NCBI GenBank assembly: GCA_008632985.1
Contig: QPGO01000078.1
Span: forward strand, 124,001 to 188,000
Direction of reading: 5' to 3'
Origin: Psammoneis japonica
Taxonomy: Eukaryota
DNA length: 64,000 nucleotides
Positions 11,291-59,844 of the stretch are shown piece after piece. Position 1 is the stretch's first letter; the number at the start of each line of letters is the position of its first letter. The position numbers and the translations under genes were made by a program. The notes beneath the pieces were generated by a model that was not told where the DNA came from, did no database searches, and saw nothing but the letters and a program-made list of their open reading frames with translations.

Positions 11291-11338
11291 AGTGCACAGT
11301 CACCCAGCCAGCGCAACAAGGGGAGGAGGAGCACACAG

Positions 11339-29869: not shown

Positions 29870-30682
29870 GGTGAAGTGCATGCCGCCGAATCCAGAATAA
29901 TTGAAATGCGCGTCCTGCGTCCTGCGTCCATAATTTTCAATTTGGTGAGAACGTGTTGGATTATTGAAAAATAACTTTGATTTGGTCATATTTCGCCAGA
30001 CTTTACAAAAACACATTATTTCCCGTGCAAAAAGCGCCTTTTTATCATAGAGGGTATGTTTTTGACGTACCTAGTAGAAACGGCGGCAGTTTCTGAAATC
30101 AACGCTTGAACATCAGCGACCATGGCCGTCGCCGCCGAAAAGTGCATTATCGATTATGTGTTGATACCGTTGGACCTGCTGTTGTCAACCCAAAATCTGA
30201 TTCATAATGAAAACCAATGAAAATATTCTCTGCACCCGAAATGTGTTTCTTCATTCTCACATTCTCAGTGAGTGCATGCAGCTCGGTATTTGCGATAGTG
30301 ACGGACTCTATTGATTAAATGTATTTTTTTGTTTTCTCAACTTCTTGTTTTGCTTTGTGTGGCGGATGCAGTTGACGCCATCATGTCAAACAGGGCGGCT
30401 CAATAAGTGCACTGTGTCATGCTGTGCGGAGTGGCTCAAGCAGATACCAATATTGAATGTTATATGGAGTGGTCCAAGGGTGAGGAGTATTCTTTTTCTT
30501 AATCTACGATCTACCGCTTTTGGGAAAGTCCCGAAATAAAGGGCAGACGAGGTTGCTCTCGTCTCTAATTATTACGAGCAACTACTGAGGTTGCTGACTG
30601 CAGCAGCGCCTCGGTAATTTTTTCTGCACGACGGCCTACAAGAGCCAAAGGGTGGTTCCCCGGCGAGACTGAGAGTGGTACC

Positions 30683-30973
30683 TGCCGAATATCACGGTCA
30701 TCTATATTCATTCGTATATTCATTCGTGGGTGTCAACCTGGTGTCAAAAGTGTCAAAAGGATGTCAACGATGACACTTTCTAGAAACCTCTTCTCCTTTC
30801 TCGATACATCTCGATGCCTCTCGAAAGATTGTTTCTTTATATTTCTACGCGGTTTCTTAGTATTAATTCTACGAGATTTCGGAGTAGCCGAATCTCTTTC
30901 ATTTCTTCTCACAACATTAGCAACAGTCAACTTTACAACGCTACTTTATACTGTTACTTGGCGCCACTTGGCA
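30683..30973 (+). repeat. Gypsy 5' LTR (291 bp)
   Basis: Matches 35292-35583 apart from 4 substitutions and a 1-bp indel. Confidence 0.97.
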
Positions 30974-31046
30974 TAGTAAATTTACTCCCAAACACTTATT
31001 CATCTCTCTTGAGATATATCTACCGATCATATTGTCCTGACCAGAC

Positions 31047-34000
31047 ATGTCAGCAGAAAACTGCCCATTCGAACTCAAGCGTCCTGACCGCTCTGAGGAA
31101 GAGCGGCGCAAAGACCAATTCGTGTCTTTTGAAAGCCCCATTGATCCTGACGATCCAGATGGGCTTAAAACTACGATCGAGGTACGTAAGTTAGCTTCAA
31201 CTGAACCGGAAGATGTTCTTACCTTCTGGTCAAACTTCGATGAACTTGTCAACGATCTCGGCACGGCTGAAGGACAGCCACGTTTCCGGCTCGTGACCAG
31301 ACTTATGACCGGAACACCAAAAGACGACTGGGAAATCGTCGTAGACGATTACGAAAACCGCGACCAAGTTACATTCGATACTTGTCGTGAAGAATTTCTA
31401 CTCCAATGCATGGATGGAGAAATTGCCCTTGATGCCAAGGAATGGCTTCAAAGCCTTGAGAAACCCAGGAACCAAACTGTCAAGTCATTTGTTAATGACA
31501 TCCGTCGCTTTAATAAGTTGATTAATATCATGCCTACGCCAACCGAAGATGACGCCGAAAGAGTTCCGTCATTCACGGAAGCGGAATTATCCGTAATCCT
31601 TCGAAAATGTGGACCAAGATCATGGGCCGAAACTCAGACTAAAGCCCGTCTTCGCAACTTAAACTTGAACGACCAAGCTCAATGCTACGAGACTCTCCGA
31701 CGTATGGAACGACGTGGTGACAAAGGGTCTACCGACAACAACAGACGCAATGACAATGGGAATCAACGCAACAACGGTCGATGTGCGCGTCGCGGTCAGA
31801 ACAACGACCAAAATCGCGACACCAGGAACAGGAATCAAAACAATCGTGAACAAACATGTCCAATCCATGGCGTTGTACATCCGAACGGTCAAGAGTGCAA
31901 TATCATCCGTCGTGAACGTGAAAATTATGAGCGGAACCGCGCAAATCGGAATGCGCCGAATCAACAAAACAACTCTCGAAACGAGCCGACACACCGCTGT
32001 CCTACACGGAGCCGCACACGGAACGTCGAAAACAATAATGTGGACTCCAAAGCCAGTCGCTCCGCTTCTAACGATGTCGACAGCGTCGCGTCAGACGATG
32101 TCAACGACATTTTTGAAGACGTCACGTCTCTTCTAGACGATTCCATCGAATCCGAAATAGAAGACAATCTTACCACGGAAGCGCGTGTCCAGATGATTGA
32201 CACTCATTCTGGAATGCACAAGTTCCGTGTTGCTCTACTCGATACCGGCGCAAATCGCAATTTTGTGAAGCGCTCAGCCCTTCGCGGGATTCCTCACAAA
32301 ATCCGTAAATGTAACGTTCCCGTTAAAGGCCGTTACAGTGCCGTTAATCTACACGAGATTGCGACGCTGACATTGAAGTTCCCAGATTTCGCATCGTCCA
32401 AGAAGGTTTCCGTCGATGCTCATGTGGAAGACAAAGCCGTAGGAAAACACGACATTATCATCGGAAGAAAAACCGCCACAGAAATGGGACTCGTTTTTGA
32501 TTTTCGACATCAAACAATCACGTGGGACGATGTTACCCTATCCATGCGATCCAAGGGCTCTTTCGACCAAGTCGAAGTTAATGCAATTCATCCCGGCGAT
32601 GCTGAATTACCCAAGTTCTTCCAGAATGCCGTCAACCGTCAGGTTCGAGGTATGACGAGCAATACGTGCGACAAGCACAATTATCGCGACATGGTTCTAC
32701 GCTGCAAACACCTTGATAACGATCAACAGCACCAACTCATCGAACTCTTCGGACGATACCCGCAATTATTCGATGGCACACTTGGAGCTGTACCCGGTAA
32801 ACCCGTCCATTTGACCCTGAAACCAGGATCGCGTCCACACTGTGCGAAAGCTTACACTATTCCGCAAGCGTTATATCCCATGGCTCGCAAAGAAGTGGAT
32901 GAATTGGAAAAAATCGATGTCATTACGCGCAAACTTCACTCTCCTTGGGGCGCACCCTGTCTTTTCCGATCGAAGAAAAGCGGTGGTATCCGTTTCTTAT
33001 CCGATTTACGGAAACTCAACGAGTGTCTCGAACGGCATCCATATCCACTACCTGTTGTCGACGACGTCGTATGGAAAATGAACGGCTTTACCTGTGCGAC
33101 ATGTTTGGACCTCAACCGAGGCTACCATCACTTCGTGCTTGACGACGAGTCAAAAAAACTCTGCGGTGTCATCCTGCCGTGGGGCAAGCATTGCCACAAC
33201 CGCCTACCGCAAGGAATCAAACCGGCAAGCGATATTTTTCAAGCTTACATGACAGACATTTTTCATGATGTGGAAGATGTCATAGTCCACATCGACAACA
33301 TCATCCTTTTTACCAAGAACAACTTCAACCATCACTGTCAACGACTCGAACTCGTCTTGCAACGGCTCCTCGCGAACAATCTTCACGTACATGTCGAAGA
33401 ATCCTATCTCGCCGCCAAGACCGTCGACTACTTAGGCCACACCATGACTGCAAAAGGTGTTCAGCCTCAGAAAAAGAAAATCCCACCCTCACTTCGCTTC
33501 GCTCGCCCTCAAAACCGTCGACAATTACGTGGTTTCATCGGGTTCGTGAATTATTACAAGAAATTGTGGTACCGACGCAGCCACACTCTTACGCCCTTAA
33601 CTGCGCTGTCATCAGACAAAGTCAAATTCAAGTGGACTGACGTCCACACGGAAGCTTTCAATCAGATGAAAAAAATTGTGGCGCGCGAAATCCTCCTCCG
33701 ATTCCCCGACTTCTCTCAACCTTTCAACATCTATCCGGATGCGAGTGATTATCAACTTGGTGCAGTAATTACTCAAGATTTTGACGATGGCGAATGGCCA
33801 ATTGCATTCTACAGCCGAAAATTATCTCAAGCGCAACGAAACTATACGACAATGGAAAAAGAGCTACTGTCGCTCGTCGAAACGACCGAAAATTTCAAAA
33901 GCATCCTTTTTGGTCATCGATGCTACCTATTTACCGATCACAAAAATCTTACATTTGACAAATTCAAGTCAGAACGCGTCAAACGCTGGCGTTTACTTCT

Positions 34001-35270
34001 CGAGGAATACGATTGCTCTTTCGAGCACCTGCCAGGCCATAAGAATGTCGTGGCTGATTTTTTGAGTCGCTATCCTGTTGTCCAAGTCGATCAAAGCGAT
34101 TACGAGGAAATGACTTCGTTGGAAATCGATCCTTCAATATTCCCCGTTACTTTCGATATTATCGCCGACTGTCAGAAAAAAGATTCTGCTCTTCAGCAAC
34201 GACTCAACAAGTCCGAATCCTACTCAGCCGAACTGTTCAACGGAAAACAGATTATCCTTTACAAGAACAAGATTGTCCTCCCTCCAACGCTTTTTCCTGC
34301 AGTTCTACGGTGGTGCCATGAAACTCTCTGCCATCCTGGTGCTAATCGCACCTGCCAAACTTTGGCTTCACATTTTTACATTCGCGACATGCAGACGAAA
34401 GTCCGTACTTTTGTCCGTAAGTGCCGCACGTGTTCCAAATCCAAGCGTACTACGGCAAACTATGGCGAATTACCTCTTCCAGATACTACTTATAAACCTT
34501 GGCAGGCAACTCAAGTCGATCTTTTCGGTCCCTGGACGTGTGCCGATAAAAATGGTGTCGATCGCAAAATCAGAGCCGTTTCAATTATTGATGTCGCAAC
34601 CCGTTGGGTCGAACTCGCGAACTATAAGTCCAAAACGTCCGAAGACATTTCACTTATCGTCGATCGCGAGTGGTTTTGTCGCTATCCGCGACCAGAAATT
34701 GTCATTTATGACAACGGTTCCGAATTCACTTCCGAATTTACAGATCTCCTCTACAGTTATGGTGTTAAACCGAAACCTACAACAATCAAGAATCCTCAAG
34801 CCAACGCGTTCGTTGAACGTATTCATCAAGTGATAGCCGATTCTCTCCGTGCGATGGATCTCCCTTCTCGTGATCATGATGAAGACACAATTCATGGAAT
34901 TTTGCAATCCGTTGCATGGGCCTTACGCAGTACCTACCATACTGCCCTTATGTCGTCTCCCGGACAAATTGTCTTCGGTCGAGACATGGTCATTTCTGCT
35001 ACTTATCTTGCGAACTGGAAAATGATTAATACCCGTCGCAAGCGCGATGTCCTACGCAATAATCTCCGCGAAAACGCAAAACGTCTTACTTACGACTACA
35101 ACATCGGCGATCAAGTCTTCGTTATGACCAAAGACATCCAACGCAAACTCAACACCAAAGATGGTCCTTTCCGTATCGTACGTGTCCATACCAATGGAAC
35201 CGTTACCATCCAGCGCTCGCCTCACGTCACTGAACGTATCAATATCCGCCGTCTTCACCCTGTCTTCTAA
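31047..35270 (+). CDS. Gag-Pol polyprotein (open frame, but RT active site mutated)
   Basis: Zn knuckle CPIHGVVH...C; protease LLDTGA; RT LDLNRGY / RLPQG / HIDN (expected YxDD); RNase H DASDYQLG / EKELL / TDHKNL; integrase H-H-C-C, VDLFGP, YDNGSEF, ANAFVER, GPF. Confidence 0.95.
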   Translation: MSAENCPFELKRPDRSEEERRKDQFVSFESPIDPDDPDGLKTTIEVRKLASTEPEDVLTFWSNFDELVNDLGTAEGQPRFRLVTRLMTGTPKDDWEIVVDDYENRDQVTFDTCREEFLLQCMDGEIALDAKEWLQSLEKPRNQTVKSFVNDIRRFNKLINIMPTPTEDDAERVPSFTEAELSVILRKCGPRSWAETQTKARLRNLNLNDQAQCYETLRRMERRGDKGSTDNNRRNDNGNQRNNGRCARRGQNNDQNRDTRNRNQNNREQTCPIHGVVHPNGQECNIIRRERENYERNRANRNAPNQQNNSRNEPTHRCPTRSRTRNVENNNVDSKASRSASNDVDSVASDDVNDIFEDVTSLLDDSIESEIEDNLTTEARVQMIDTHSGMHKFRVALLDTGANRNFVKRSALRGIPHKIRKCNVPVKGRYSAVNLHEIATLTLKFPDFASSKKVSVDAHVEDKAVGKHDIIIGRKTATEMGLVFDFRHQTITWDDVTLSMRSKGSFDQVEVNAIHPGDAELPKFFQNAVNRQVRGMTSNTCDKHNYRDMVLRCKHLDNDQQHQLIELFGRYPQLFDGTLGAVPGKPVHLTLKPGSRPHCAKAYTIPQALYPMARKEVDELEKIDVITRKLHSPWGAPCLFRSKKSGGIRFLSDLRKLNECLERHPYPLPVVDDVVWKMNGFTCATCLDLNRGYHHFVLDDESKKLCGVILPWGKHCHNRLPQGIKPASDIFQAYMTDIFHDVEDVIVHIDNIILFTKNNFNHHCQRLELVLQRLLANNLHVHVEESYLAAKTVDYLGHTMTAKGVQPQKKKIPPSLRFARPQNRRQLRGFIGFVNYYKKLWYRRSHTLTPLTALSSDKVKFKWTDVHTEAFNQMKKIVAREILLRFPDFSQPFNIYPDASDYQLGAVITQDFDDGEWPIAFYSRKLSQAQRNYTTMEKELLSLVETTENFKSILFGHRCYLFTDHKNLTFDKFKSERVKRWRLLLEEYDCSFEHLPGHKNVVADFLSRYPVVQVDQSDYEEMTSLEIDPSIFPVTFDIIADCQKKDSALQQRLNKSESYSAELFNGKQIILYKNKIVLPPTLFPAVLRWCHETLCHPGANRTCQTLASHFYIRDMQTKVRTFVRKCRTCSKSKRTTANYGELPLPDTTYKPWQATQVDLFGPWTCADKNGVDRKIRAVSIIDVATRWVELANYKSKTSEDISLIVDREWFCRYPRPEIVIYDNGSEFTSEFTDLLYSYGVKPKPTTIKNPQANAFVERIHQVIADSLRAMDLPSRDHDEDTIHGILQSVAWALRSTYHTALMSSPGQIVFGRDMVISATYLANWKMINTRRKRDVLRNNLRENAKRLTYDYNIGDQVFVMTKDIQRKLNTKDGPFRIVRVHTNGTVTIQRSPHVTERINIRRLHPVF

Positions 35271-35291
35271 CGTCTCAATTGGGGAAGCGAG

Positions 35292-35583
35292 TGCCGAATA
35301 TCACGGTCATCTATATTCATTCGTATATTCATTCGTGGGTGTCAACCTGGTGTCAAAAGTGTCAAAAGGATGTCAACGATGACACTTTCTAGAAACCTCT
35401 TCTCCTTTCTCGATACATCTCGATGCCTCTCGAAAGATTGTTTCTTTATATTTCTACGCGGTTTCTTAGTATTAATTCTACGAGATTTCGGAGTAGCCGA
35501 ATCTCTTTCATTTCTTCTCACAATGTTAGCAACAGTCAACTTTACAAACGCTACTTTATACTATTGCTTGGCGCCACTTGGCA
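35292..35583 (+). repeat. Gypsy 3' LTR (292 bp)
   Basis: Direct repeat of 30683-30973, preceded by the PPT. Confidence 0.97.
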
Positions 35584-36866
35584 GTGCCTCCAAGGAAGGG
35601 GGTCCCACTCGACGTGCTATGACCCGAATCTCTGTTAGATAGGGTTCGCCTGCCCTCAAAGGTGGTTTGGATTGTGGATTGTTTGTTCTCTTGATTGGGA
35701 TCGTTCTTTTTTTAGTGACAACTACGTAATGAGAGAACTAAAGGCATAGGATAATAAAATAATGAAGAACAATTGCTATTAACCCAACCTCGGCAACTGC
35801 ATTGTAAATACTACTAGCACTGCTAGTACTGTTGCAATAGAATGATAAAATAGCCGGATTAAATTGATCTAATGTAAGGTTATTGAAAAGCTTGGATGGT
35901 CGTTCGTAGTAGCGCTTCTAGATGCCTCTCCTCTTCTATGCGCTTTTCCATCTTCTTGTGCTTGCGCACCTTCTGACAAAGTCGATCTTGCGTAATGCCG
36001 TCAACTAATCCAATGTCGTCGTGTTGGTCAACGAAACGGGCGAGTGGTGAGGAGTGAGCCAGGCAAGCAAAGGCGCACTGATGAAGACTCTGCCGCGATC
36101 CACCAGTCTTTTTGCATGAGGTCCAAGCTTTTTTTGCAATCGCGTCACACACCTTAGCAGTGCTGCGTCCTGCTTGAGGTGACGCTCTCCAGCAATCAGA
36201 GGGGCTTGAGAGGACTCTCCATCCCAAGGTGGGACTTTTTGGCGCGCACTGGGTCAAAAGTCGGCCCGATCAGTCTGGATTGGCAACACGGCGTTTCTGA
36301 TTGGCTCAATCACAAATGACTTGTGTGGGAGAATGAATTCTTGATCCGGGGTGGGCGATGACCACAAGAACTGCATGTCGGCACGCCTCACAGAAAATCT
36401 GTGGCAAAGGAAACAAAACGGCTTACAGTGCGATCATACAATGTGACTTATGCCTTCGATTTGTCGTAGTGAAAATTGTCCAGTTCACGGATAATGCCAA
36501 ATTCTGGTCATCACAAAAAGAATCAGTGTGTGAGAAAGAACCCAAAAGCAGACATAAATGCCACTTCCACATCAGATTACATGATCGTACACAACAATTG
36601 TCTGGAAGCTTTCTAATTAAAAAGTCTTTGAAATGTCCGTTGAAATAATTGTTGTCGTGATTCCGGTCATTAAAAAGTAGTGTTGTGACAAAGAGTCCAT
36701 CGTAAGATTCTACGAATCCCCCGTAAGACATTTTCACTTAAGCATCGGCCTACTGCAACCCTCACAAAACGAAAAACAAGAATCGAGTCTCTGCTCTAGC
36801 CACTGTTGAGTCTCATCCACTAAAGGCTCACAAAATAGGATCGAGCCAAATCTCGAACAAGAAAAG

Positions 36867-39065
36867 ATGAAAATCATTTGCAAGGGTGTTTCTCTCCTTC
36901 TTGCTTTTGCTCTTTGCGATGCTGCTGGTACGTGCGTTGCTACAAGGCAAATCGTGCTTGGGCGACAGAGCCATTTCGATGAGACAAGAGCGGCTAACAA
37001 ATTTGCATCTTTTTATCTTCTATTCTTCCTCAGACCTGATGACGAAGCCGGGACTTAGGGATGGTGCTTCTCAAAAGGTAAGCAACAACACCGTCCCGGT
37101 GGTGTTCATTCCCTTTCGTCGGTCGTTCTGACACTTCTGCTCGTTCGGTGAAAACTTTCACCTCTGTTCTCGAAGGACGTCGTCAGCCCTAACGCTGAAG
37201 TTGAGTCCGACAGGTTGCTTGGTGTAAGTAAATAAACGATTTCATGCCGTTTAGCTAGAAACTTCTTCGTCATTTTCTAAAACATCCGAATCGCTCGAAC
37301 GTCTTTCAGCATTACTTTCCTGCTGAGGGGGCGTGCTGTGAAGCTGAGCATGGTCAACCTAAATGTACGGTCGCACAGAAACGTGATTGTCAAGGTCGAG
37401 GCGGCCACTACGTTGGAGACGGAAGCAGCTGCAGACCTAACAAGTGTGCAAACGTCCCACGTCCAACGCCACCAACTACGCCGAGTCCTCCGACACCGAC
37501 GTTGGATGGAAAGGAGGGAGCATGCTGCTTGAGGTTCCGGCAGGTCTTGTCTTGGTGAATAAGAATCACTGTCTTCCTATTTTAACCTCAATGCTTTGCC
37601 ACCTTGCTTTGCAAAAATCACATTTTGTGTTTCCAGGGATCGATGCTTTGTTGTTTCGGCAGCCATTTGCCAGGTTAAGAACGGAATTTACCACGGGGAC
37701 GGCACGGTAAGATTCGTCACTATTGTGAGCACAGAATGAACATGCATGAGTAGATCTTGCAATAACCCCTTTCATTCTTTCTTCTTGTTTTCAGACCTGC
37801 ATTTCCGGTGGTTGTAGGACCAGGGGCGCATGTTGCTTGGGTTCTGGTGAATGCCTCCCCTTTGAAAAGAAAAAGACGTGCCAAAGGGCGCTCGGTGGCA
37901 CCTTCCAAGGAGTCGGCACAACTTGTCAGGACGGAGTGTGCCGTGTTACTCCTCCTTCTGGTCCTGGCACTCCGCCATCTGGACCTGGTATGCCTCCGTC
38001 TGGACCTGGTGCTCCTCCTTCTGGTCCTGGTACTCCGCCGTCTGGTCCTGGAACTCCTCCGTCCGGTCCTGGAACTCCTCCGTCCGGTCCTGGTACTCCC
38101 CCGTCGGTCCTGGTACTCCTCCGTCTGGTCCTGGTACTCCCCCTTCTGGCCCGGGTACTCCTCCTTCACCCACGCCGCCCTCTCCGCAAGAGGGAGCTTG
38201 CTGCTTGCCCTTCGGAAACAGGAATTGCGATGTTCTTTCCGAAAAAGACTGCACTCGTCAGGGTGGAGCATACCTCAGAGATGGCAAGATGTGCGCTGCT
38301 ACAAGATGCTCAAGGCAAGGAGCCTGTTGTCGTGACAATGGCACTTGTGGTAGGACGACATTGTCTGGATGCGACAATGGAGTCTTTCAGGGTCGCGGTA
38401 GTGAATGCGAAGATGAGAATGGCTTAACTATTTGTCCAACGCCGGCTCCCACTCCGTCTCCCACGCCTGATCCCACCCCCTCTCCCACGCCTGATCCTAC
38501 GCCTTCTCCCACGGCTGCTCCTACACCTGCTCCAACGGGAGCATGCTGCGTGCCGTTCGGACGGAACACGTGCGAAGTTCTCTCCAGGGCAGACTGCGCT
38601 CTTGAAGGAGGAGTGTACCAGGGAGATAATAAGGCATGCCAAAGGACACGCTGTCCAAGGCGTGGAGCTTGCTGCCTTGAAGATGGCAATTGCTTCTTGA
38701 GCCCCTTGGCTGGTTGCAACAATGGCAAAGTCTTTCAGGGTCGCGGCACTGAATGCCAAGACGTCACCGGTGCACCTGTGTGTCCGGCGGGCCCACCCAC
38801 GGTTCAAGTGGGCCGCTGCTGCCTTCCCAACGGCGATTGTGATGTAACCACCCCCACAGAATGCAATGATCAGTTCGGCGTGTATCAGGGAGCCGGTACT
38901 ACGTGCGGTGGTGCAGATGATCGCTGCAGCGAAAAAGGAAGTTGCTGTGTGGATTTCAAACCATTCTGTATTGACGTCAACGTTGCGGTTTGCAAGAAGA
39001 AGCGCGGTGACTTCCAGGAAGATACCGTTTGCTTTGACACCCGTTGGTGTCCCGGTGAGGCCTAG
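36867..39065 (+). CDS. Secreted Cys-rich GACC-repeat protein with Pro-rich linkers; multi-exon, apparent 1-bp frameshift at ~38105
   Basis: Signal peptide MKIICKGVSLLLAFALCDAA. Predicted GT-AG introns 36928-37033, 37078-37175 and 37224-37309, plus two more at ~37555-37636 and ~37707-37794. Repeated GACC-x-C-x-C-x-GG-x-Y/FQG-x-G-x-C modules; TAG at 39063-39065. Confidence 0.75.
37948..38160 (+). repeat. 21-bp coding tandem repeat (TPPSGPG) x ~10
   Basis: actcctccgtctggtcctggt-like units; the unit at ~38095-38115 is one base short. Confidence 0.92.
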
Positions 39066-40399
39066 GCTTGGAGACGCCAGTGGCCGTGATCGTAATTCGT
39101 AATACGAGTGTTTGTTTTAGTGAGGACATGTGACTGAAGAACAAGAACAAGCCAGTGATGTAATGCCACCATGACACCTCTGTATAATCGCAAAAGTCCG
39201 AGCCCCTCAGCAAGAAGAAGAAGTAAACAGGGCTTGGATCCAATTAAAAAAAAAAATAGTGTCCATGTTTTGTGAATGTTGCGCAAGCAGTTATTGTACC
39301 GAAGCAGTTTCATCGCCTCAACTGTTTCAGAATAATCCACTCACGACCACATGATGATGCAAATTCAAGGCACCAGAACAACTGTTCCAACTGTCTAAAA
39401 AGTCATCATGAACGGCCGCCGTCCACAAGGGTTTGGTCGCAGATCAATCTCATCTTTGATCTTTGCCGCCTCTCTCCACACTCCTGCGCTTCTTTTCCTT
39501 GCACCACCATCCAACTTGGGGGATTCCCTCAAGTGCTCAACAGCACTTTTTGGGATCGCTCAGATCTTGCCGCGGCTCTGTTGACAAGCGCGTGGATGGT
39601 CAGCATGCCAAGTCCCAAGCAAACGGGTGTCACTGCGTGCTTGGCCATGATGCCAACAAGTGCCTTTTGCCATGATTTCAACCCTCTGGGCCATGTGTGT
39701 GCCTGCAACAACCACTTTTCGACTTTTTGATTTGTCCAGGGGGGGGGGGGGGGGGGGCGGTCACTGTGCTGTGAAGCACCTGCACATGTGCAAGCTTTTG
39801 AGTCCATGCAAGCATGTGCTGCCACACCCTCAGCCAACAAGCAGACACAAGCTGTTGAGAAAATGTCCCCATCACAAGGCATCAAAGAGCTCAAATTCAT
39901 GGGCAAACATGGAGACAATCTGCACAATGCTGGCTGGACTGCAGGAGTGAACAAAACATTGACAGCAACAGCCAAAGCAAAAAGGAAGATGAAGATGAAA
40001 ACAAACATGACAGTGCCAACTGTGTGAGCAAGTCAGAAGATGAAAATCATGAAAAAGAACTGGCTCAAATGACAAACATGAAAAAGCAAACAAGATCCCA
40101 TCCAACTAAAAATCAAGCCCCCCCCCCCCCCAATGAACAGCACAAGTTTGAGAACCAAAAAGTCAAGGAAGAAGATTTTGAGCTTCATGAAAAAAACAAA
40201 GAGACTGAAGAAGATGATGGATCCAAAAAGACAAGAGGTGGGAAGGAGACAGATTGGAGGAACAGACAAGAGCCACATCTGGTGGAGTGGCCAGGAAAAG
40301 TGCATCGTTCAACATCAAATCATGCAAACACATGGAGGGGAAGTTTGATTTGCATGTGGCCTGGGACAGCCCAGACACTGTCAAAACAGAATGAGAGCA

Positions 40400-42250
40400 A
40401 AACAAGCTTGAACACTGCCATCATTTGTGAACAAATGTGAGTCCCAACCAAGAGGATGACATTCCACATGCAGGCAGCCAATGGATTGCTTGTGTCCATG
40501 AGAGGCCACACAACATGGATGGCACGTGCCCTGCAATTGCTGCATCATGCACATGAGTCAGGGAGCTTGCCAACAAGAGTTGGGGAAAGGTGGCATTTCC
40601 AAGAGGATCACCATGTGGCACAAGAAGAGTTGACAGAGTGGGCACAGAGCGGGCAATGTTTTCAACTCAAGATCCACACCTTTGCCACAATTCAATGGAT
40701 GTGCATTTGTTGACAGAGAAGGTTGAAAGGAACAAAAAGCTTGCCAGCAGACAAAGCAAATTCAGGAGCACACGGCACAAGCCATGGATGAAGATGCACA
40801 ACCTGGTGCAAAAAGTGCAGTTAAAAGGACGCCATGGAGTGATGAAGTGTGTGAACACATGTCTGCTGCTGCCAATGTTCTCCCTCCATGATGATCTGAA
40901 CCTTTCATCTGAAATCAAATTGCGCGGTGCAGAGGCACACACAAACTCATGATGAACATGACAAAGGACATGTCACAGGATTGCAGGGCAATGATTTGCA
41001 GTTTGCCCTGGACAAGTGTGCTTTCAACAATTTGCAAAGGCTGTTGACAGTCAGTTGCCCCACCTGTGGCATGAATGCACTTGGGGGTTGTGGCTCCCTT
41101 GTGAACCTCAACACCACCCACTTCTCCAGAGGCAAAGCGCAAGTTGATGTGGGCTGGTGCAGAGCAACAACGGCATTGTTTGCAACACTGAGAAGTTGTC
41201 ATTGTTCTTCCACCATGACATTGATCATGCAAGCACCAAGAGTTGGTGTGCTTGTCACAGAATGGAGTTCTTTGAGTTGACTCTTAAGAAGATCAATGGC
41301 TGGATCAAGGACCAGATTGTTGGTGTTCACACAGCAAAGTTGTGTGAGAGAGGCCTCATTGCACTTGTGTGGAGTGCTTTGCAGAGCCTTTTCAATGCAT
41401 TGCATGCTTGTTCAACAACATGGTTGATTGCAGTGATGCAGGAAAGCACACAAATCTGCACACTTGTGATTTGTGGGATGTCAGCACCAAGGCACAACTG
41501 ATGCACCTGGCAACCACATTGTGGTTGATGCAGCACAAGGCCAGTTTCCTCTGGACATGGAGCATCATGGTGTCACATCCATTTGAGTGACAGGAGTGTG
41601 TTGCAACATCTTGATCATGAGAAATCACAGGGAACCCAGACAGATTGAAGGAAAGATGTTTGACTCTTGATGTGGATCATTTGGCAGCTCTTTACAAACA
41701 AGATTTCATCATCACCAATCTCTCTCACATCTTTCAGTTTATCTCACTCTTTGGAGTGAATCATTTTGTTTGCTTGAAGAAATGCACATTTGGCACCACA
41801 AGGCATCTGCTGTGTTGCAAGTTTGAAGTTTGCATTGACAACTTCCATGCAACCCATGGCCTCTACAATCAACCAAGGCAAGTCAAATGAGCAGCACAAG
41901 AAGCCCAGCAGGACTCCCTGTTTTAGTGACATTGACTTGCTGGTTCAACACCAGCTGGTTTTCCTGATTTTAGAATGGAGTGGAGCCTCAAAAGAGCAGA
42001 ACATTCAACACTTGGCTGTCCCCAAGCAGTGACACTGAGAGAAGTCAGAGAGCAGTCAGTCAGGTGACACTCCTGTGGTGGTTGGCCAAACCATGCAAGT
42101 TGGTGGTGCACAATGTGGTTTGTTGCAGAGCATCAACAGAGTGGCTCCACTCACTCCCTTTGAGCAGTCAGAGCCCACAAAACAATGCACTGGACAATGA
42201 TGGCAATGGCACACAGCATTTCAAGATCTGCCCCTTCTGACTGATCTAAC
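40400..42250 (+). mobile_element. Possible hAT-like transposase relic
   Basis: Faint motifs in the expected order: DHAS...CACH..FELTLKK (CxxH-like, ~41220-41295), DVSTKA (DVxTRW-like, ~41480) and RASTEWLHS (SxxxERxFS-like, ~42130). Confidence 0.3.
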
Positions 42251-43420
42251 CAACTGCATCTTTCAGATTTCACAGCAAAGAAAGATGGAGGCAAGTGCAG
42301 AGTGCTGAGACAGCTCTTTCATTGAGCCACAGAGCCAAAATGTCTGGCTCAAGGCAAGGTGGCCACAATGGTGGAGCACAAGAGTTTGTGTGACAATGAA
42401 AAAAAACAGCAACAGAAGACAGCTTTGCATGACGAACAGCAAAGGACATTTGTCCAAGGCAAAGAAGACAATCTTGCATGTGGACATTGTTTCTTGAACT
42501 CAGGAGGAGGCTTCCACAGAGCAGCAAGGTTGCCCATCTTCTTCTGGGTGCTCCTGATCATGCAGTTGAGTGGTGCACAATGTTGCATGCCAGTAATTGG
42601 AGCAGATTGTGAGAGAGCAGACTGGGCAATGACAGTGTTTTGTTTGCTTCTTCATGGAACAAAAGGCAGAAACAAGAAGCAAGCACTTGGCTCTGGATTG
42701 CAACATTTCATCACCAACAAGGCCTGTGTCAATGGCCATGAAATGGCTCTTGTTGAAGGAGACCACCAGCTGCTGATGGCCACTTCCATTTCTAAAGCCC
42801 ACAATGCCTTGACTGGAATGGCATTGATTGCAAAGCTGTTGTGTGCTGGCTGGAGCCAACAAGGGTGGCAAAGGTGAAAATGGGCCACAAAGGCAATTGA
42901 CCCAACTGACAATGAAAATGTCACAATTCTGGAGGCCACCCCTGATGAGCTGACAAAGGCTCTTCTTCATTGGAAAGCTTTGATTTTTGCAAAATGACAC
43001 AGCCACTTGTCAGCTGACTGTGATCTGCCACAGATCCCTCCCAATGTGACTGAGGTTCTTTGCTGCTTTTGCAGCAGTTTCTGTCAGAGAGAATGTGAGT
43101 CTGGCCCAATTTGTTCACTTTCTTGTCAGAGCCAAGACTTGTGGAAGACATGGCAAAGAAGCAGCTTGCTTGAGTGCAACCAAACAATGTGTTCAGAATG
43201 CCAGCACAAGGTCATGCAACATTGTCTGTTGATGCGACAGTGTCAGAAATGCAAACACTGTGCTTTTGTGATTTGAATGGCCTCTGGGGCATGCACTTGC
43301 ATGTGTGTTGTTCTCTGCATGAAAGTGGGTGTGAAGCCAGTGATGCACTGCACACAACAGCCAGAACAGCTGTGTTGTTGACCTTCTTCAGACAGAAACA
43401 ACATGGGGTCTGACAAGCCC

Positions 43421-43946
43421 GTGGTGTAGATTGGGTGTGCAACCCCATTTTTTGCAGTGTCAGTGTGCACACATGGCCATTTGCACATGCGGAACATGGG
43501 ACTGCACACAACTTTTTTGTGGTTTTTTGCACATTTTGGTCATGTTCACACAAGACACATGCAGGCTTGCTGCTTGCATGCTGAAATTGGCAAATTTCTC
43601 TCACATCTGACAATGTCCCATGCATGTGGGATTGTCCCCCCATTGTGTCACACATGACAGGAGATGGCAGCTCAAGTCCTGGATGTGGTGTGGATTGGGT
43701 GTGCAATCTCATTTTTTGCAGTGTCAGTGTGCACACATGGCCATTTGCACATGCGGAACATGGGACTGCGTGCAACTTTTTTGTGGTTTTTTGCACATTT
43801 TGGTCATGTTCACACAAGACACATGCAGACTTGCTGCTTGCATGCTGAAATTGGCAAATTTCTCTCACATCTGACAATGTCCCATGCACGTGGGGTTGTT
43901 CCCCCATTGTGTCACACATGACAGATGTTGTCTCAAGTCCTGGATG
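43421..43946. repeat. 264-bp tandem duplication
   Basis: gtggtgt(a/g)gattgggtgtgcaa... starts at 43421 and 43685; the copies differ at few sites. Confidence 0.92.
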
Positions 43947-43949
43947 ATG

Positions 43950-46900
43950 TGCGCATGGTTTTCAGTGCCTGTGGCATTGGACAACAAGCTCAGCACATTT
44001 GCAAAGTTTTGACAAAGGTTTTGTGACTCTTGCTCATGTCAGAGAGATGGAATCTGATGCTGATGTGACTGAGATGGTGAAGCGTTTGGCCTCTTGCACA
44101 TCTGCTGAAGGGCACAGAGCATGTGAGTTCAGGCACAGCTCAAATCAAATGCACTCAAGCTTCAGTGTGGTGGATGCATGACAGGCAAAGACATGGACAA
44201 GATTTGGATGCAACAGAAGCAACTCCAGAAGCTTTCAAATTGCAAGTCGCTCAAATGAAGATCATCAAAAAGAAGAGGTCTGATGTGGACACAAATGTGA
44301 GTTCTGGCACAAAGTTTGATCCATCAATTGTGTGACATGTGCAAGAGTGCTTTTTGAGTTTGCCATTGCAGAAGGCTGGGGCAATGAAAGTCCCACTGTG
44401 CCATGTTGCTCATGTGGAAGAAATGCCTGAGGAACCTGCAAATGATGAAGAGCATCACACATGGACCAATTGCTGTTTCAAGGCAATGAAAGTTGTGAGA
44501 ATGGCTGCCATGTTGGATGCCAAAGGAGCTCTTGGCCAGTGCACCAGTTGAACATGAATTTCACATTTGGGTGCATCAGAAAACAGATGTGCAGCATTTG
44601 GGGCACAAGCCAACCATTGCAATGGTCAAGGAGAGTCAAGTGAATGGACAGTTGCAGCCAAATGCATCATCAAAATGGTCCATTGTTGAAATGGGAGGGT
44701 TCCTTTTGAAGCTGTGGCTACAAAGTCAACAAAAGCTTTCACTGCTCTTGACAAGGATCTGGACTTGAAACCTTTCAAACATCAAAAGTTGGATGCATTG
44801 TCAAATTGCATCAATGCAACTGATGCTGAGTTGGTGGCCTCTGAAGCCATGATCAGCCAAACCCATCCAACAGATGTTTAGACAGCATGGAAGTGAGACA
44901 ACAACAGATGTGCAGCCATCATTGCTGGTTGTCACATCAAATTCACCACCCACTTCCAAGGAAACAGTTTGATCAAAACTGCTGCAGAACTTCATTTTGG
45001 AGTTCCTCAACAAAGCAACTTTCCTTTCAAATGGCTGTTTGGAATGTTCCTTGCAAAAGCCATGCAATTGTTGTCAGCTTCCATCTGTTTGGCATGTGCT
45101 TCAATGTGAGATGCAATGTGATCACTCCTTTCCAAGTCTGCAACACAACAAAGAACACTGGCCAGGGACAAAACACACAAGTGTTGTTGTTTCCTTGCAA
45201 GAACAATTTCACTGGCAAGCTGCTTGTCCACAACTCAATCTGCATTGGATGACAACATCTTTCCTTCTGGCAATGAGCAAAAACCATCCTCTGGCTTCCA
45301 ATCTTTCAATTCCTTCTAAACATCTGGATGTTGTGTCTTGAAATTGCACTCAGCCCAATCTTGGGTCAAACAGTTTTTGCAGTTTGCCTCAGAGTGCAAA
45401 CAACAAAAGGAGCAACCTTTTGCTGGTTGTGTGGAAGACTGGAAGCTCCTCCTTGCTCAGTCTCTTGAGATTTCACAAACTGTGTTGAACTGCAAATTGC
45501 GCCCATCTTCTGCTGAATCTCATCCCTTCCTTTTGAGTTGTTTTCTGCACTCTGTTGGGTTTGTGCCCAGCATCTGCAATGAGCTCAACACAACTCTTCA
45601 TGGGACAGCCCCTCATTTTGTTGGTGCTGCCAGCAAGCCCATCTCCACACTGCATGCAGCCAGAAACTTTGCTCAATCCAAGTGAATTTTGCAACCCTCA
45701 ACATCACTTGAGCATTGTTGTGCATTTGTTTGGCCATCTCCCTTTCTTTTTGGTGGTGCTCACCTTTGCTCAATGGAGCCAGAGCTGATGGTGCTCTTGG
45801 TCTTGGCTTTGAGGTGCAAAGGACACAAAGATCTTTGTCATTGCTTGCTCCAGTGACAGCTGTTGACATCTCCATCTGGCATTTGCAATGCGTGTCTCCC
45901 ACCCTCTCCCTTCTTTCTTTTTGTCTCCAAATTCTGAGTTTCCTCACTTGAAGCATCCAAGTCTCCCACCTGCTTCTTCTCTCAATTTCATGTCCCAGGT
46001 GACAATGCATCCTTCTGCAAAACAAATGCTGTTGCAGCCAGGGAGCCACCTTGCTTCAATCAACAATGCAAGCCATGAGGTTCCTGTTGCAATGCTTCCT
46101 CCAAACACTTGAGCAAATGTGCAGGCCAACAAGTTGGCGGGCTGCTTTCACAGTCAACACCCCTTTGACACTGCTCACATCACTCCATTCCCCAACTGTC
46201 AGGCCTGTCTCAATTTGTCTGATGGAGCTGTTGCCACCAGACTGAAAGCTGCAGTTTGCCATGTGTGGCTGCTGCCCCGGCGCTCAAGGAATGCATCTGC
46301 AAAAGGAACAAGTGGCATCCTCAGGTGTGGAGTCTGATTGTCAAACTGTTGCATGATTTGCTCCCTGCAAAACAAGATTGCTCATTTTCACAACCGAGTG
46401 CATCCTCATCATTGTCTTCAGTGTGAGCACCCAATGGAAGACAGGGATCATGTTCTTTGCTGCCCAGAGAATGAGGCTCAGTGTCTGAAATTTTTTTCTT
46501 GCAAAATTTGTGAAAGCATTGCAATCAAATTGACATGATGCCTCTGTCATGGGACTTTCTTCTGACTGCCCTGGAGGCATGGTTTTTGGATTAATGCTGC
46601 GTGAGTCTGATTTGACACTGATGCCAGTTCCGCTGTGGAGGGCCCAGTCAAACATTGGCTGGCAACAGCTCTTCAACAGTTGATTCTCCAAGTTGTGGAG
46701 TGTCTTTCAGGAGATTTGTTTGAGGGAGTTTAGATCACTGGATGAGCATCAAAAGGAGAACATGCTTCCTTCAGTCTGGGCAGCCCAAGTTGGGTCCTGC
46801 ATGTGGAGCAAGTGGTGGGAACTGCAGGAGGAGCACAACCAGATTGCACACAGCTGCAATGCGGATTCTCACAAATCATGTTGGTGTCAACTGAGGCAGA

Positions 46901-47100
46901 GCTGATGGCAATCTGCAACAAATGACAAGAGTGCTTGGCAGCACACAGAAATGTGCTTGGACCACAAGGAGCATGCCACATCTCAAATTCAGAATTGGAT
47001 CGCGATGGTGAAACCCATTTTTAGAAAGAGCTTGAAAGATGCAAAGAACCTGGTGCTTCAAGGGACTTGCACAATTCTCAGCCACTTTGGTGGGGACACT
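43950..47100 (+). mobile_element. Decayed non-LTR retrotransposon 3' region (RNase H-like and C-terminal Zn knuckle)
   Basis: CLQCEHPMEDRDHVLCCP (~46413-46466, CCHC), QSNIGWQQLF (~46645) and WSKWWELQEEHNQIAH (WxxRN-like, ~46803); weaker RNase H-like DADV and HGQD near 44055-44200. Confidence 0.55.
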
Positions 47101-48759
47101 GCCACACTTTGCAGCACACTGGAAGTGCAGGTTAGCTGGTGCAGGCACAGTTGACAAAGGAGCAACAGCACTCCAAACAAAGGACTTTCTTTTTTTTAAC
47201 AACAATGTGAGCCAGTGGCTCCTTGAAAAGTTCTTCTTCTTGTCATCTGAGAATTGTTGTTGTGACATTTCTTTGTTGTTTGTGATGGCTTCCACCAACT
47301 TGGAGCACCACGGTGGTGAAACAGACTTGTGCAAACAGTTGCACCTGATTCCAAAAATGGCCCTGTCATTCATGAGAACCTGCAGCACATGACAGCACGC
47401 CACCAACCAGTGACAACATCATGAAATGCCTCTGATGGTGAAACCTTTTCATGTTTGCATGGACCAAATGAAGAAACTTTTTGGCAACCTTGCTGCCAGA
47501 ACAACGCATCAGCACTCTGCATCCTGCATCAGTGGGAAGTTTGGGGATGCAAAGATTGTTCTCCATGTCATTGTCTGAATCATCAGGATCCTTCCTGTTC
47601 AGTTGCTTGTCATGAAAAAGACTGTCCTCATTGTTGTGCTGATCAGATTTCTTCAACTTGTCACATTGTTTGACAACTGGAGCATGGCCATGCTTCTTGT
47701 CCACCTGCTTCCTCTGACACCTTCTGATGCAATGGACCACTGGTTGTGTGTTTCACACCAATTCTCTCTTGATCGTCAAATGGGGGACTTTGTGTCACAT
47801 TCAAACTGGACATGCAATCCCTTTGAGAAACAAATTTTAAATTTGCTCATCTTTCCTGACAGGGACTTCACTCCACAACAACCACAAAACACAATCTTGC
47901 CAAAGGGCAGCCATGCAGTCTTTTGCACTTTTCTAAATTGCCAGCATTGACCTGGCTTCCTTCACTTGTCTTGCACTTGGCAGCACTAAAATGACTGTTG
48001 CCAACACAGCTTTTTGTTTTGTCAAGTGGTTCATCCCAAATGACATGGTGGTCATTGCTTGTCTCAGTGGTGCAGGTGGCACACTTTTGGCTGGAACAAG
48101 GCAATGCCAGAACAATTCTGGAGCTCATTGGAGCAACCAGCTTCTTTGCACATGGTGCAAGAGCATTGTCTTCTGCCAGTGCTTGTGTTGTCACAGCCCC
48201 ATTGCTCAGGGAGTCTTTCACACCTCTGTCATCATTGACCTTTGGCACTCTGTCATGTTGTGGCCTTGCACTGTGCCACAGAACTCTGTGCCAAGCTTTC
48301 CATTTTGACTCATTTGTTTTGTGAGCCTGTTGAGCGAGCCTCATTGTCTGTTCTCAAAACAACTTTTTTCTGGCTTTCCCACAAAGACTGCTGTGCTGCT
48401 TGTGGCAACAGGCATTGGGTGTTTCCCAGCAGATGACCAACAAGAGCCCAGACATGTGCAAGAAACATGCCAGGTTTCATGCAAGCAGCCACAAAAACAA
48501 ATGGCAAAGGCTGTTGCCATTGCCATTGCCATTGCTGTTGCTGTTGCTGTTGACAGAGCAATGGAGCTCAATGCTCTCTGCTGGCATCAACAGCACAGTG
48601 GGAAAAGGCAAATGTTGTTTGATTTGCTGTCTCCAGCAGAGGGGCCTCACTTGCTTTGTGTGCAGGCATTGCTCACAACCTGACAGAGGTCCTTGTGTCC
48701 ATGTGGGAATGGTGCGCTGTCACCTGGGCTCCTCTCCTTGGGTGCTGGGGTGCTTTTGG

Positions 48760-51700: not shown

Positions 51701-52430
51701 CAATGGACAACCCGGGTTTCCTGCTGCCAGAGGTTGACCCCAAGTCCACCGGTTGTTGAAGTGGGCCGCTGCTGCCTTCCCAATGGCAATTGTGATGCAA
51801 CCACTCCTGCAAAATGCAATGATCAGTCCAGTGTGTGTCAGGGAGCCATCACCATGTGTGGTGGTGCCAATGATCACTGCAGCAAGAAAGGAAGTTGCTG
51901 TGTGGGTTTCAAACTGTTCTGCATTGACATCAACATTGCAGCTTGCAAAAAGAAGCAAGGCAACTTCCAGGAAGACACCGCATGCTTTGACACCCATTGG
52001 TGTCCAGGTGAGGCCTGGGCTTGGAGACGCCAAGTGATTGTGATCACAATTTGTGGTGCAAGTGCTTGTTTTGGCAAGGACATGCAAATCTCAATCCAGT
52101 GAATGCCACCATGATGCCTCTGTGTTGTTGCACCAGTCCAAGCCCCTCTGCAAGAAGAAGATGAAGCAAGTGGGGCTTGGGTCCAACTGCAAAAAAAAAA
52201 CAGTGTCCATGTTTTGTGAATGTTGTGCAAGCAGTGGGTGCACCACAGCTGTTTCATTCATTGCCTCAGTTTTTCATTGGCATGACTGCCTGACCTTTTT
52301 TCAGAGACCCCAGAACAATCCACTGTCACAACAACATGATGGAACATGATGACACCAATTCAATCAAGTCACCAGAGCCACCAAGTGTCTTTGAGTCACC
52401 ATGAATGGCCGGCAGCCACAGGGGTTGCAT
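48760..52430 (+). pseudogene. Decayed paralogue of the Cys-rich gene locus (~36245-39430), including upstream region and introns
   Basis: Colinear with the intact locus: ATGAAGATCATTTGCAAGGGTG at 49366, GACCLEDGNCFLSPLAGCNNGKVFQGRGTECQD retained, stop read through at 52016. It carries extra modules at ~50985-51240 and ~51590-51740. Confidence 0.93.
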
Positions 52431-52639
52431 CACAGATCACTCAAGATTGTTGTTTCTGGTGTCAAACTGGTGTCTGACAGTGCCATGGTGATTGATGTTT
52501 TGGTCGGATTCCATGTGTGGAGATTTTGCACTGTGCGCCCAAGTTTCTTGGTGGTGTTGTTTTCAAAAAGGCAACAGCTTGCTGTTTGCTGTGAAATCCT
52601 TGCAGATGTGCACACAGCCTCCACCTCCATGCTGCTTTT

Positions 52640-59726: not shown

Positions 59727-59844
59727 TCACCACTTGCTCCATGTGGCAGACAATCACCATGAAAGTTGCCTCTGGAGTGTTCTTGTCACCACTTGCTCCA
59801 TGTGGCAGACAATCACCATGAAAGTTGCCTCTGGAGTGTTCTTG
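59727..59844. repeat. Perfect 59-bp tandem duplication
   Basis: tcaccacttgctccatgtggcagacaatcaccatgaaagttgcctctggagtgttcttg twice. Confidence 0.92.

Follow-up and report, generated by a model that had tools for sequence, protein, structure and literature searches.

The stretch of DNA that we analysed (the window, 64,000 nucleotides of a Psammoneis japonica contig) contains an intact Ty3/gypsy element of 4901 bp at 30683-35583. The element splits a repeat and is flanked by a target site duplication (TSD) whose two copies differ at one base. The features at this site are listed below.

30266..36090, no strand: host repeat of ~0.9 kb, split by the gypsy element into about 30266-30682 + 35584-36090 (contig depth; limits approximate)
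30678..30682, no strand: left TSD, GTACC (sequence; the same 5-mer stands single in the empty-site contigs of run X2)
30683..30973, + strand: 5' LTR, 291 bp, TG...CA (LTR alignment)
30915..30916, + strand: CA, against TG at 35524-25, two adjacent transitions (LTR alignment)
30953..30956, + strand: G..A, against A..G at 35563 and 35566, each a TA/TG difference in TAY context (LTR alignment)
31047..35270, + strand: gag-pol ORF without interruption, 1407 aa, P0001 (ORF translation)
32235..32252, + strand: LLDTGA motif, retropepsin-like (read off the translation)
32973..33443, + strand: reverse transcriptase, RVT_1 (Pfam E=3.1e-15, residues 643-799)
33633..34010, + strand: RNase H, RT_RNaseH_2 / RT_RNaseH (Pfam E=3.4e-29 and 1.6e-28, residues 863-988)
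34281..34796, + strand: integrase, H2C2 zinc domain and then rve core (Pfam E=7.2e-13 and 8.3e-10, residues 1079-1250)
35280..35291, + strand: purine-rich tract TGGGGAAGCGAG, adjoining the 3' LTR (sequence)
35292..35583, + strand: 3' LTR, 292 bp, TG...CA, one extra A at 35546 (LTR alignment)
35584..35588, no strand: right TSD, GTGCC (sequence)

The element has direct LTRs with TG...CA ends, a pol region in which reverse transcriptase is followed by RNase H and, last, by integrase, and a 5-bp TSD whose copies agree at 4 of 5 positions and can be set against an empty site. Pfam gave no match to a protease domain in the gag-pol ORF; the LLDTGA motif is presumably the mark of the protease. From its position, the purine-rich tract is likely to be the polypurine tract, and we identified no tRNA-complementary primer binding site downstream of 30973. 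The LTR pair is 98.3% identical over 292 columns. Diatom Ty3/gypsy elements (Metaviridae) have the same LTR-gag-PR-RT-RH-INT-LTR layout and 5-bp TSD, and next to them this element shows nothing unusual; its own family is absent from the databases searched. Searched as protein, the pol region matches environmental proteins of about 1400 aa at 55-59% identity and a Fistulifera solaris protein at 41%, and nothing above 59%; an exact LTR 22-mer had 0 matches in metagenome contigs. The element is an intact LTR retrotransposon that inserted very recently into a diatom nuclear genome. A DIS3-like ORF near the element has its best named matches in diatoms, at 47-51% identity.

We compared read-derived contigs with the window over 29500-36800; run X3 contributed none, and X2 had no cover inside the element. 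The host-repeat flanks have a contig depth of 360-790, versus about 62 in unique DNA; several contigs bypass the element, and a unique 9269-nt contig stops at 30265. The element is thus nested inside a dispersed repeat of roughly 0.9 kb. Neither Rfam nor ARAGORN detected an RNA gene in the window, so insertion next to a Pol III gene as target is unsupported. Two contigs show the site without the element: in one, of 101 nt, 90 nt identical to the left flank are followed by the right flank, and in the second the left flank ends in GGTA directly before 35587. Contigs of run X2 join the flanks via a single GTACC. The original prediction had expected an empty site reading GTACC, and the exact-flank contig does read so, but in one X1 contig 30677 is followed by 35584, consistent with an empty copy that has GTGCC. 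At the place of the TSD, paralogous copies that lack the element have GCATC, ACACC and possibly GTGCC.

The same prediction held that all substitutions between the LTRs and between the TSD copies lie at TA or CG sites, and took the element to be caught early in a mutational process. On re-reading the sequence, the bases and positions it gave are all exact. The LTRs differ by four transitions and a 1-bp indel, the extra A in an A-run of the right LTR at 35546, which is, as claimed, the single difference other than a substitution; with the TSD there are five substitutions, and transitions account for 5 of 5. Two of these give ctGttAc at 30951-57 and ctAttGc at 35561-67. The statement about TA/CG sites is true of all five. 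As a criterion it is weak, since a transition within a pyrimidine-purine step necessarily leaves one of the two sides with TA or CG. Such steps take up 47% of the 296 TSD and LTR positions. Its probability by chance is P=0.024 for five independent events and 0.05 if the adjacent pair is one event. Tests specific to TA overall give P of about 0.018-0.028; for example, 3 of 46 TA-containing columns differ versus 2 of 250 other columns (Fisher P=0.028). The clean TA/TG differences (TSD, 30953 and 30956) are all three in TAY context, but 17 of 22 TA sites have a 3' pyrimidine, and this agreement therefore says little. Clean CG differences between the LTRs number 0 among 15 CG sites per LTR, though the TA/CG-poor blocks described below lose CG as fully as TA. 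Furthermore, the LTR events are clustered at LTR positions 233-274 of 291, a span of 41 bp, with the TSD difference 20 bp further on. The distribution of TA fails to explain this, with 6 of 21 LTR TA sites in the last 60 bp; four random points would fall within such a range with about P=0.01 by our own rough arithmetic. The indel within the cluster is no product of TA/CG erasure. The five differing sites carry little statistical weight and cannot prove an origin by TA/CG erasure.

Nor is a single ancestral CG or TA resolved both ways, as had been proposed for 30915-16, the simplest reading of that pair. By contig depth, CA is the family majority there (about 2143 of 2378) and TG the minority (235); a TA or CG state is absent among the 40 family variants listed, of 458. 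To arrive at TG, the right LTR must then have undergone two neighbouring changes or received the sequence from a donor copy. TG at this position is also present in a diverged LTR copy with 11 differences (X2 record 16).

Evidence for a process that erases TA and CG comes, first, from the remainder of the window. As a whole, the window has TA at 0.32 of expectation and CA/TG at about 1.45. Three blocks have almost lost both TA and CG, and the largest contains one copy of an internal duplication.

2975..3571, no strand: small block, nearly TA/CG-free, 2 TA and 6 CG in 597 bp (dinucleotide counts)
10880..12664, no strand: block, nearly TA/CG-free, 4 TA and 15 CG in 1785 bp (dinucleotide counts)
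36246..39313, + strand: unconverted duplicate copy, ~3 kb (self-comparison of the window)
39637..63969, no strand: large block, nearly TA/CG-free, 58 TA and 127 CG in 24333 bp (dinucleotide counts)
48768..52257, + strand: converted, frameshifted copy of the 36246-39313 segment, inside the large block (self-comparison of the window)

The three blocks have sharp boundaries, with TA at 0.01-0.06 and CG at 0.04-0.18 of expectation. In the large block, which reaches the window end, CA and TG are about 1.8-2.0 times expectation. GC in the blocks is 0.45-0.52, as in the remaining window, and near 47% without a drop. Pfam found 0 families in 16 ORFs from the blocks. Strand tracts gave z=0.07 for the large block as a whole and 70 runs versus 81±6 expected in the paired duplicate alignment (P=0.047); none is convincing. 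On indirect grounds, we judge it unlikely that the blocks are a base-calling artefact of modified DNA. That the reads of the run with the converted family copies are accurate is evident from its contigs, up to 315 kb long at a depth of about 62. Miscalls on mixed strands would also create TA, which is absent in the blocks, and the converted duplicate copy has frameshifts and about 10% background divergence.

The duplicate pair reveals what happened to the lost dinucleotides. The unconverted copy has an open frame of 399 codons (37866-39065) for a Cys-rich repeat protein; the converted one is a frameshifted pseudogene, and this sets the direction in which the change went. TA in the normal copy has become CA or TG in the block copy at 57 of 75 sites, and CG at 105 of 140 (60 CA and 45 TG); CA and TG themselves were kept unchanged at 144 of 185 and 193 of 228 sites. 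Divergence per site is 52% at TA, 46% at CG and 9.7% elsewhere, where transitions make up 90 of 123 changes. The process is thus specific for two dinucleotides. Its outcome also depends on the flanks: YTAY gave TG 9 times and CA 3 times, versus 5 and 14 for RTAR (P=0.012), and TCGB gave TG 14 times and CA 11 times, versus 3 and 15 for VCGA (P=0.0125). The gene duplicate with its upstream region is non-retroelement DNA, converted in situ. The original prediction had spoken of a TpA mutator; a strong directional change of TA to TG/CA is indeed found, but it is not specific to TpA, as the loss of CpG is equally strong.

The process acts on the gypsy family as well. The family is high-copy, with a depth of roughly 1000-2500 versus 62 in unique DNA. 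Relative to the window copy, the contigs of run X1 show 123 A>G, 116 T>C, 71 C>T, 63 G>A and 80 transversions, so that transitions are strand-symmetric, A>G matching T>C and C>T matching G>A. Among the 40 variants listed, 18 are TA/CG in the window copy and CA/TG elsewhere, and in one older copy 12 of the 13 covered TA/CG dinucleotides are converted, with just 2 other changes. Older copies of the family are already heavily converted. The copy in the window is nearly unconverted (CG 1.42 and TA 0.59 of expectation).

These data show the direction, dinucleotide specificity and strand symmetry of the change, as well as its action on the gypsy family. They are best explained by a DNA-level, strand-symmetric hypermutation in this genome by which TpA and CpG become TpG/CpA via transitions, A to G at TA and C to T at CG. 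It is confined to sharply bounded domains and runs near completion inside them, with a preference for A in 5'-TAY and for C in 5'-TCG. The TA/TG differences at the TSD, 30953 and 30956 are then most likely its first hits after insertion. We infer that the five differences of the element come from this process and that the process is still active. It may be tied to silencing or methylation; its chemistry could combine deamination of 5mCpG with an A:T to G:C activity at TpA, such as adenine deamination or an error-prone repair patch. As a whole, this explanation (a young gypsy element in a ~0.9-kb repeat, TA/CG hypermutation of the genome, and the differences of the element as first hits) is one to which we give a probability of roughly 0.55.

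The alternative that survives best is one local event at the element's right end, with the left LTR and left TSD preserving the insertion state. All six differences (35524, 35525, +A 35546, 35563, 35566 and 35586) would have arisen together within 63 bp, either through error-prone repair (gap or long-patch) where the element integrated, or through gene conversion or recombination with a diverged LTR of the family over a short tract, plus a separate change in the TSD. The clustering, the indel within it and the polarities fit such an event just as well. Both testable polarities (CA as the commoner family state at 30915-16, GTACC as the reading of the exact-flank empty site) place the change in the right copy, though two of two would do so by chance with P=0.25. 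TG is carried by the LTR of a diverged copy, and since family polymorphism is mostly between TA/CG and CA/TG, a donor tract would also bring differences at pyrimidine-purine steps. However, the TSD lies outside the element and beyond the reach of a donor element, 35563 would be a change of TG to TA, opposite to the prevailing direction, and a donor with the whole right-end haplotype is absent among the 40 of 458 variants listed. Taken together, we find a local event unlikely, if a serious contender.

An assembly or polishing chimera, in which the right junction took up variants that belong to other gypsy copies and to paralogues of the host repeat, seems quite improbable. The LTR end and the flank are multi-copy, as the depths above attest; 50 contigs fit two places in the window, the paralogous empty copies vary at the TSD, and TG at 30915-16 exists in other copies. 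Yet the differences all lie within 63 bp, the LTR, just as repetitive elsewhere, is identical over its other 230 bp, and the ORF is perfectly open. Mis-polishing would have no reason to pick out TA/TG sites, except that variation within the family is itself of this type. The least credible reading is that ordinary neutral transitions, the commonest substitution throughout the window (as at the other sites of the duplicate), fell in pyrimidine-purine steps of LTRs about 1.4% diverged: almost half of all positions qualify, but the TA-specific tests speak against chance, an independently demonstrated process that acts on this family predicts exactly such a pattern, and 4.2 kb without a stop or frameshift fits an age below that implied by 1.4% neutral divergence.

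Returning to TA/CG hypermutation, the closest known systems are repeat-induced point mutation (RIP) of ascomycetes and the TCG-targeted hypermutation of Microbotryum. In the portions of PMC3318451 and PMC5381629 available to us, these share with the process here a DNA-level, transition-only action in a di- or trinucleotide context and an inactivation of transposon copies far faster than background, with inflated LTR divergence as a result; TCG is the preferred context of the CpG half here, as those portions report for Microbotryum. RIP is C to T only, classically CpA to TpA, and makes TA, whereas here TA is consumed via A:T to G:C. RIP mutates both duplicate copies; here 36246-39313 keeps normal TA/CG and only 48768-52257 is converted. 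Also, RIP lowers GC, which in the blocks is unchanged, and the large block shows no strand tracts. RIP depends on a RID-type DNMT and takes place before meiosis. A RID-related methyltransferase, DNMT4, of unknown function, is present in many diatoms, and diatom transposons are CpG-methylated, according to the portion of PMC9998398 available to us. Decay of 5mC at CpG, as in vertebrates, resembles the process in being a strand-symmetric and domain-confined change of CG to TG/CA, as the two outcomes of CG in the duplicate illustrate, and it explains half of the pattern. It leaves TpA alone, however, and here the loss of TA is even deeper than that of CG. Vertebrate CpG depletion is to roughly 0.2 of expectation; in the blocks it is deeper. 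Another source of A to G change is ADAR, which prefers a 5' U, i.e. a TA context. Editing of retroelement RNA or cDNA by ADAR (A-to-I) and APOBEC (C-to-U) yields hypermutated retrotransposon copies with A to G and C to T/G to A changes, similar to those here, as described in the available part of PMC4866542. Such editing is pre-integration and strand-asymmetric, in contrast to the symmetric counts in the X1 contigs; unlike its products, the gene duplicate was converted in situ, and the LTRs and TSD differ after integration. To our knowledge, known transposon mutators (RIP, 5mC decay and APOBEC) act by cytosine deamination only.

In the literature searched, mostly outside subscription journals, we came across no account of TA and CG being erased together, whether in diatoms or in other organisms; apparently, its occurrence in a diatom genome is undescribed so far. 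We may be dealing with a new defence-like hypermutation, domain-bounded and strand-symmetric, that would convert A in 5'-TA(Y) to G as efficiently as C in 5'-(T)CG to T, would rid silenced DNA of the two self-complementary pyrimidine-purine dinucleotides roughly 20-50 times faster than background, and would still be active, the young gypsy element bearing its first hits. We hold this fuller proposal tentatively, at somewhat less than even odds. If the TA half is real, it amounts to directed A:T to G:C hypermutation of nuclear DNA, and no known transposon defence would offer a precedent for a targeted mutator of this kind. It would also offer a testable genome-defence mechanism for diatoms, a major algal group with a RID-like DNMT4.

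Converted repeats escape homology-based repeat finders. Searches of the window with the element, by blastn or tblastn, returned only the element itself and LTR matches (extra tblastn matches were non-significant, E above 2) and no converted relatives. Long-silenced DNA could be mapped in a simple way by its TA/CG-free tracts, and the young gypsy element could provide a natural zero-point from which to measure the rate. By a rough estimate, mutation is raised about 48x at TA and about 22x at CG. Given this and the action of the process on the gypsy family, the predicted overestimation of ages by LTR-divergence dating follows: LTR clocks would overestimate insertion age, by up to about ten-fold, roughly, for a fully exposed LTR of such composition.

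The element at 30683-35583 is a structurally intact Ty3/gypsy retrotransposon and, in itself, an ordinary diatom gypsy. Its inter-LTR region is a single unbroken frame of 1407 codons that encodes a protease-like LLDTGA motif and has reverse transcriptase, RNase H and integrase domains in the order seen in gypsy; a purine-rich tract adjoins the 3′ LTR. The bases and the LTR and TSD coordinates of the original prediction match the sequence, and the four LTR-LTR substitutions are transitions without exception.

Gypsy element and differences between its ends
30683-35583, gypsy element, 4901 bp
LTRs of the element, 291 and 292 bp, TG...CA in both
30678-82, left TSD, GTACC; 35584-88, right TSD, GTGCC
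30915-16, LTR difference, CA left versus TG right
30953, LTR difference, G left versus A right
30956, LTR difference, A left versus G right
35546, 1-bp indel, an additional A within an A-run of the right LTR

The interest lies in the process that this element samples: the loss of TA and CG dinucleotides, which become CA or TG, in bounded blocks. Across the window, the observed/expected ratio is 0.32 for TA, 0.63 for CG and about 1.45 for CA/TG, but composition varies as a mosaic beneath this average: the first 39 kb is for the most part ordinary, at ~45 TA+CG per 500 bp, and three blocks have 2-5.

TA/CG-poor blocks
2975-3571, small block, sharp edges, flanked by long ORFs
10880-12664, small block, sharp edges, flanked by long ORFs
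39637-63969, large block, sharp edge, continues past the window end

The large block has observed/expected ratios of 0.01-0.06 for TA, 0.04-0.18 for CG and 1.6-2.1 for CA and TG, at the same GC content as elsewhere. Sixteen ORFs from the TA/CG-poor blocks gave no Pfam matches. At the start of the large block are homopolymers of 19 G (39739-39757) and 14 C (40118-40131), which may be natural, or may betray a join in the assembly or the difficulty that long reads have with homopolymers. Beside a small block, at 3590-3660, a tRNA-like stretch with a GGTTCGATTCC-like motif was picked out by eye; ARAGORN and Rfam found nothing there. An ORF on the minus strand (2-2356), running off the window edge, encodes the C-terminal part of a subtilase (Peptidase_S8) and a Hint module.

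A ~3-kb duplication in the window gives the direction of change. The copy at 36246-39313 has normal composition and contains an open frame encoding a Cys-rich repeat protein, whereas the copy at 48768-52257, within the large block, is frameshifted; TA and CG therefore became CA and TG. The 75 TA of the normal copy are represented in the block copy by 30 CA, 27 TG and 4 unchanged TA, and its 140 CG by 60 CA, 45 TG and 16 unchanged CG, so that about 75% of both dinucleotides were converted. CA and TG were unchanged at 144/185 and 193/228 sites. Divergence per site is 52% at TA, 46% at CG and 9.7% outside pyrimidine-purine steps. Since only one duplicate copy was converted, the process, unlike RIP, is not homology-dependent in RIP's manner. 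Tandem repeats of 21 bp at 37912-38167 and 50424-50697 encode a Pro/Gly/Thr/Ser-rich stretch in the Cys-rich protein and in the converted pseudogene.

Whether CA or TG results is settled site by site (runs z = 0.07 over the whole large block), with at most weak clustering of outcomes at paired sites of the duplicate (P = 0.047). Flanking bases influence this choice. At TA, YTAY yielded 9 TG and 3 CA, and RTAR 5 TG and 14 CA (P = 0.012); at CG, VCGA yielded 15 CA and 3 TG, and TCGB 14 TG and 11 CA (P = 0.0125). The large block retains 58 TA, of which 41 are in CTAA/TTAG or TTAA (that is, YTAA/TTAR) and essentially none in RTAY; CG survival is lowest in TCGA, CCGA and ACGA. Taken together, the survivor contexts and the flank-dependent outcomes point to A in 5′-TAY and C in 5′-TCG, on either strand, as the targets. 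From the large-block counts (58 TA, 127 CG and about 5600 CA+TG), and assuming near-equilibrium, our own rough arithmetic puts hypermutability at about 48-fold for TA and 22-fold for CG. The large block also contains a 264-bp tandem duplication (43421-43660 versus 43685-43924, 96% identical). Its copies differ by transitions only, including TA/TG, CG/TG and CACA/CGTG, which suggests that the mutation spectrum of the process persisted after this duplication.

Other copies of the gypsy family came from read-derived contigs of three sequencing runs of one sample, compared with 29500-36800. Contig depth in the element is roughly 1000-2500 versus about 62 in the unique flank, and the family is therefore high-copy. 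Contigs of one run, X1, differ from the window copy by 123 A>G, 116 T>C, 71 C>T and 63 G>A changes and 80 transversions. Changes this symmetric between the strands cannot stem from editing of RNA or cDNA prior to integration. Variant classes were counted in 40 of the 458 variant rows, a set that does not contain 30953 or 30956: 18 have TA or CG in the window copy and CA or TG elsewhere, 6 make up three adjacent CA->TG pairs, 5 run in the opposite direction, 7 are other transitions and 4 are transversions. One family contig, at 34405-34497, has 12 of 13 clearly covered TA/CG converted and 2 other changes, indicating a conversion rate tens of times that of background. The window copy is almost pristine (observed/expected 1.42 for CG and 0.59 for TA).

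Adjacent CA<->TG double transitions occur in the family at 30915-16, 32777-78 and 33126-27, and in the duplicate at 15/185 and 13/228 (6-8% of CA/TG sites). This exceeds the ~1.7% that independent transitions predict by our own arithmetic, and is expected if any TA or CG that arises is rapidly turned into CA or TG. At 30915, C accounts for about 2143 of 2378 by depth and T for 235, with G at 30916 in the same two contigs as T; a diverged 5′ LTR copy from a second run, X2 (11 differences), also has TG. CA is thus the majority by depth, and the left LTR has the family-majority state. The family variants listed include no TA or CG at 30915-16. The idea that one ancestral TA or CG was resolved both ways here is possible, but with CA as the family majority it is not the simplest.

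The element is nested in a dispersed repeat of ~0.9 kb (about 30266-30682 and 35584-36090) with a normal, TA-rich composition. Flank depth is 360-790, about 6-11 times that of unique DNA, and the unique contig stops at 30265. Because the flanks are themselves a repeat, many contigs skip the element. The empty site had been predicted to read GTACC, and this is what X2 contigs read: one of 101 nt matches the left flank exactly over 90 nt and continues directly, by way of one GTACC, into the right flank, with a loose end common to three contigs, and in another the left flank ends GGTA immediately before 35587. An X1 contig of depth 49, however, joins 30677 to 35584 and fits GTGCC. Paralogues of the repeat have GCATC and ACACC at the TSD position, and TA would be the most parsimonious ancestor of the TA, TG and CA found among the copies. 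One of the long ORFs nearby, all free of introns, encodes a DIS3-like exonuclease whose best named relatives come from diatoms (Cylindrotheca, 51%; Seminavis, 48%; Nitzschia and Chaetoceros, 46-47%); its best unnamed match is 54% identical. This marks the window as nuclear DNA of a diatom, one absent from the protein collection that was searched.

That the LTR and TSD substitutions all fall at TA/CG sites is true of all five, but any transition in a pyrimidine-purine step would qualify: in each of CA<->TA, TG<->TA, CA<->CG and TG<->CG, one of the two states is TA or CG. Such steps cover 47% of TSD and LTR positions, and all five hits would land in them by chance with a probability of 0.024, or 0.05 with the adjacent pair taken as one event. 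A sharper test on the TSD+LTR alignment points the same way: 3/46 columns with TA differ versus 2/250 others (Fisher P = 0.028). TA enrichment at these five sites alone is suggestive, not decisive.

We favor a process-driven origin of the differences, at a probability of roughly 55%. A single local event at the right end is a tentative alternative: either error-prone repair where the element joined the host DNA, or gene conversion over a short tract by a family member with TG, accompanied by a separate hit in the TSD. An artefact, mis-polishing of this doubly repetitive junction, we consider improbable. The six differences, an indel among them, are confined to 63 bp at the right end (35524-35586), and both testable polarities, the TSD by its empty site and 30915-16 by the family majority, put the change in the right copy. 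Independent hits in both LTRs explain these observations only slightly better than a local event or mis-polishing does. A further point, absent from the original prediction, is that LTR positions 233-274 (of 291) contain all four LTR events. By our own arithmetic, four random points cluster that tightly with about P = 0.01, and the distribution of TA does not explain it, since 6 of 21 TA sites are in the last 60 bp of the LTR. Pure chance is the least probable source of the differences, given the independent evidence for the process.

The process acts at the DNA level and is strand-symmetric, transition-only and domain-bounded, with trinucleotide preferences, and it removes both self-complementary pyrimidine-purine dinucleotides. 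Deaminated 5-methylcytosine in silenced, methylated DNA may account for the CpG half. CpG methylation of diatom transposons has been described, as has a RID-related DNMT4 of unknown function in many diatoms (PMC9998398). The TpA half would require an A:T->G:C activity limited to the domains of the CpG half. Candidates for such an activity would be deamination of plain or modified adenine in TpA, oxidised thymine that mispairs, or CpG lesions that set off error-prone patch repair. No account of TA and CG being erased together, in diatoms or in other organisms, was found in the full-text literature searched, most subscription journals excepted. The process belongs with context-specific hypermutation of silenced repeats, and there is a substantial chance that its TpA arm is something categorically new.

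The proposal that LTR dating overestimates age holds if the process reaches the element. The LTR offers about 44 TA and 30 CG positions in about 294, and by our own arithmetic the divergence of an exposed LTR would proceed at roughly ten times the background rate. The 1.4% by which the two LTRs differ would in that case mean a much younger insertion, in agreement with the fully open 4.2-kb frame.
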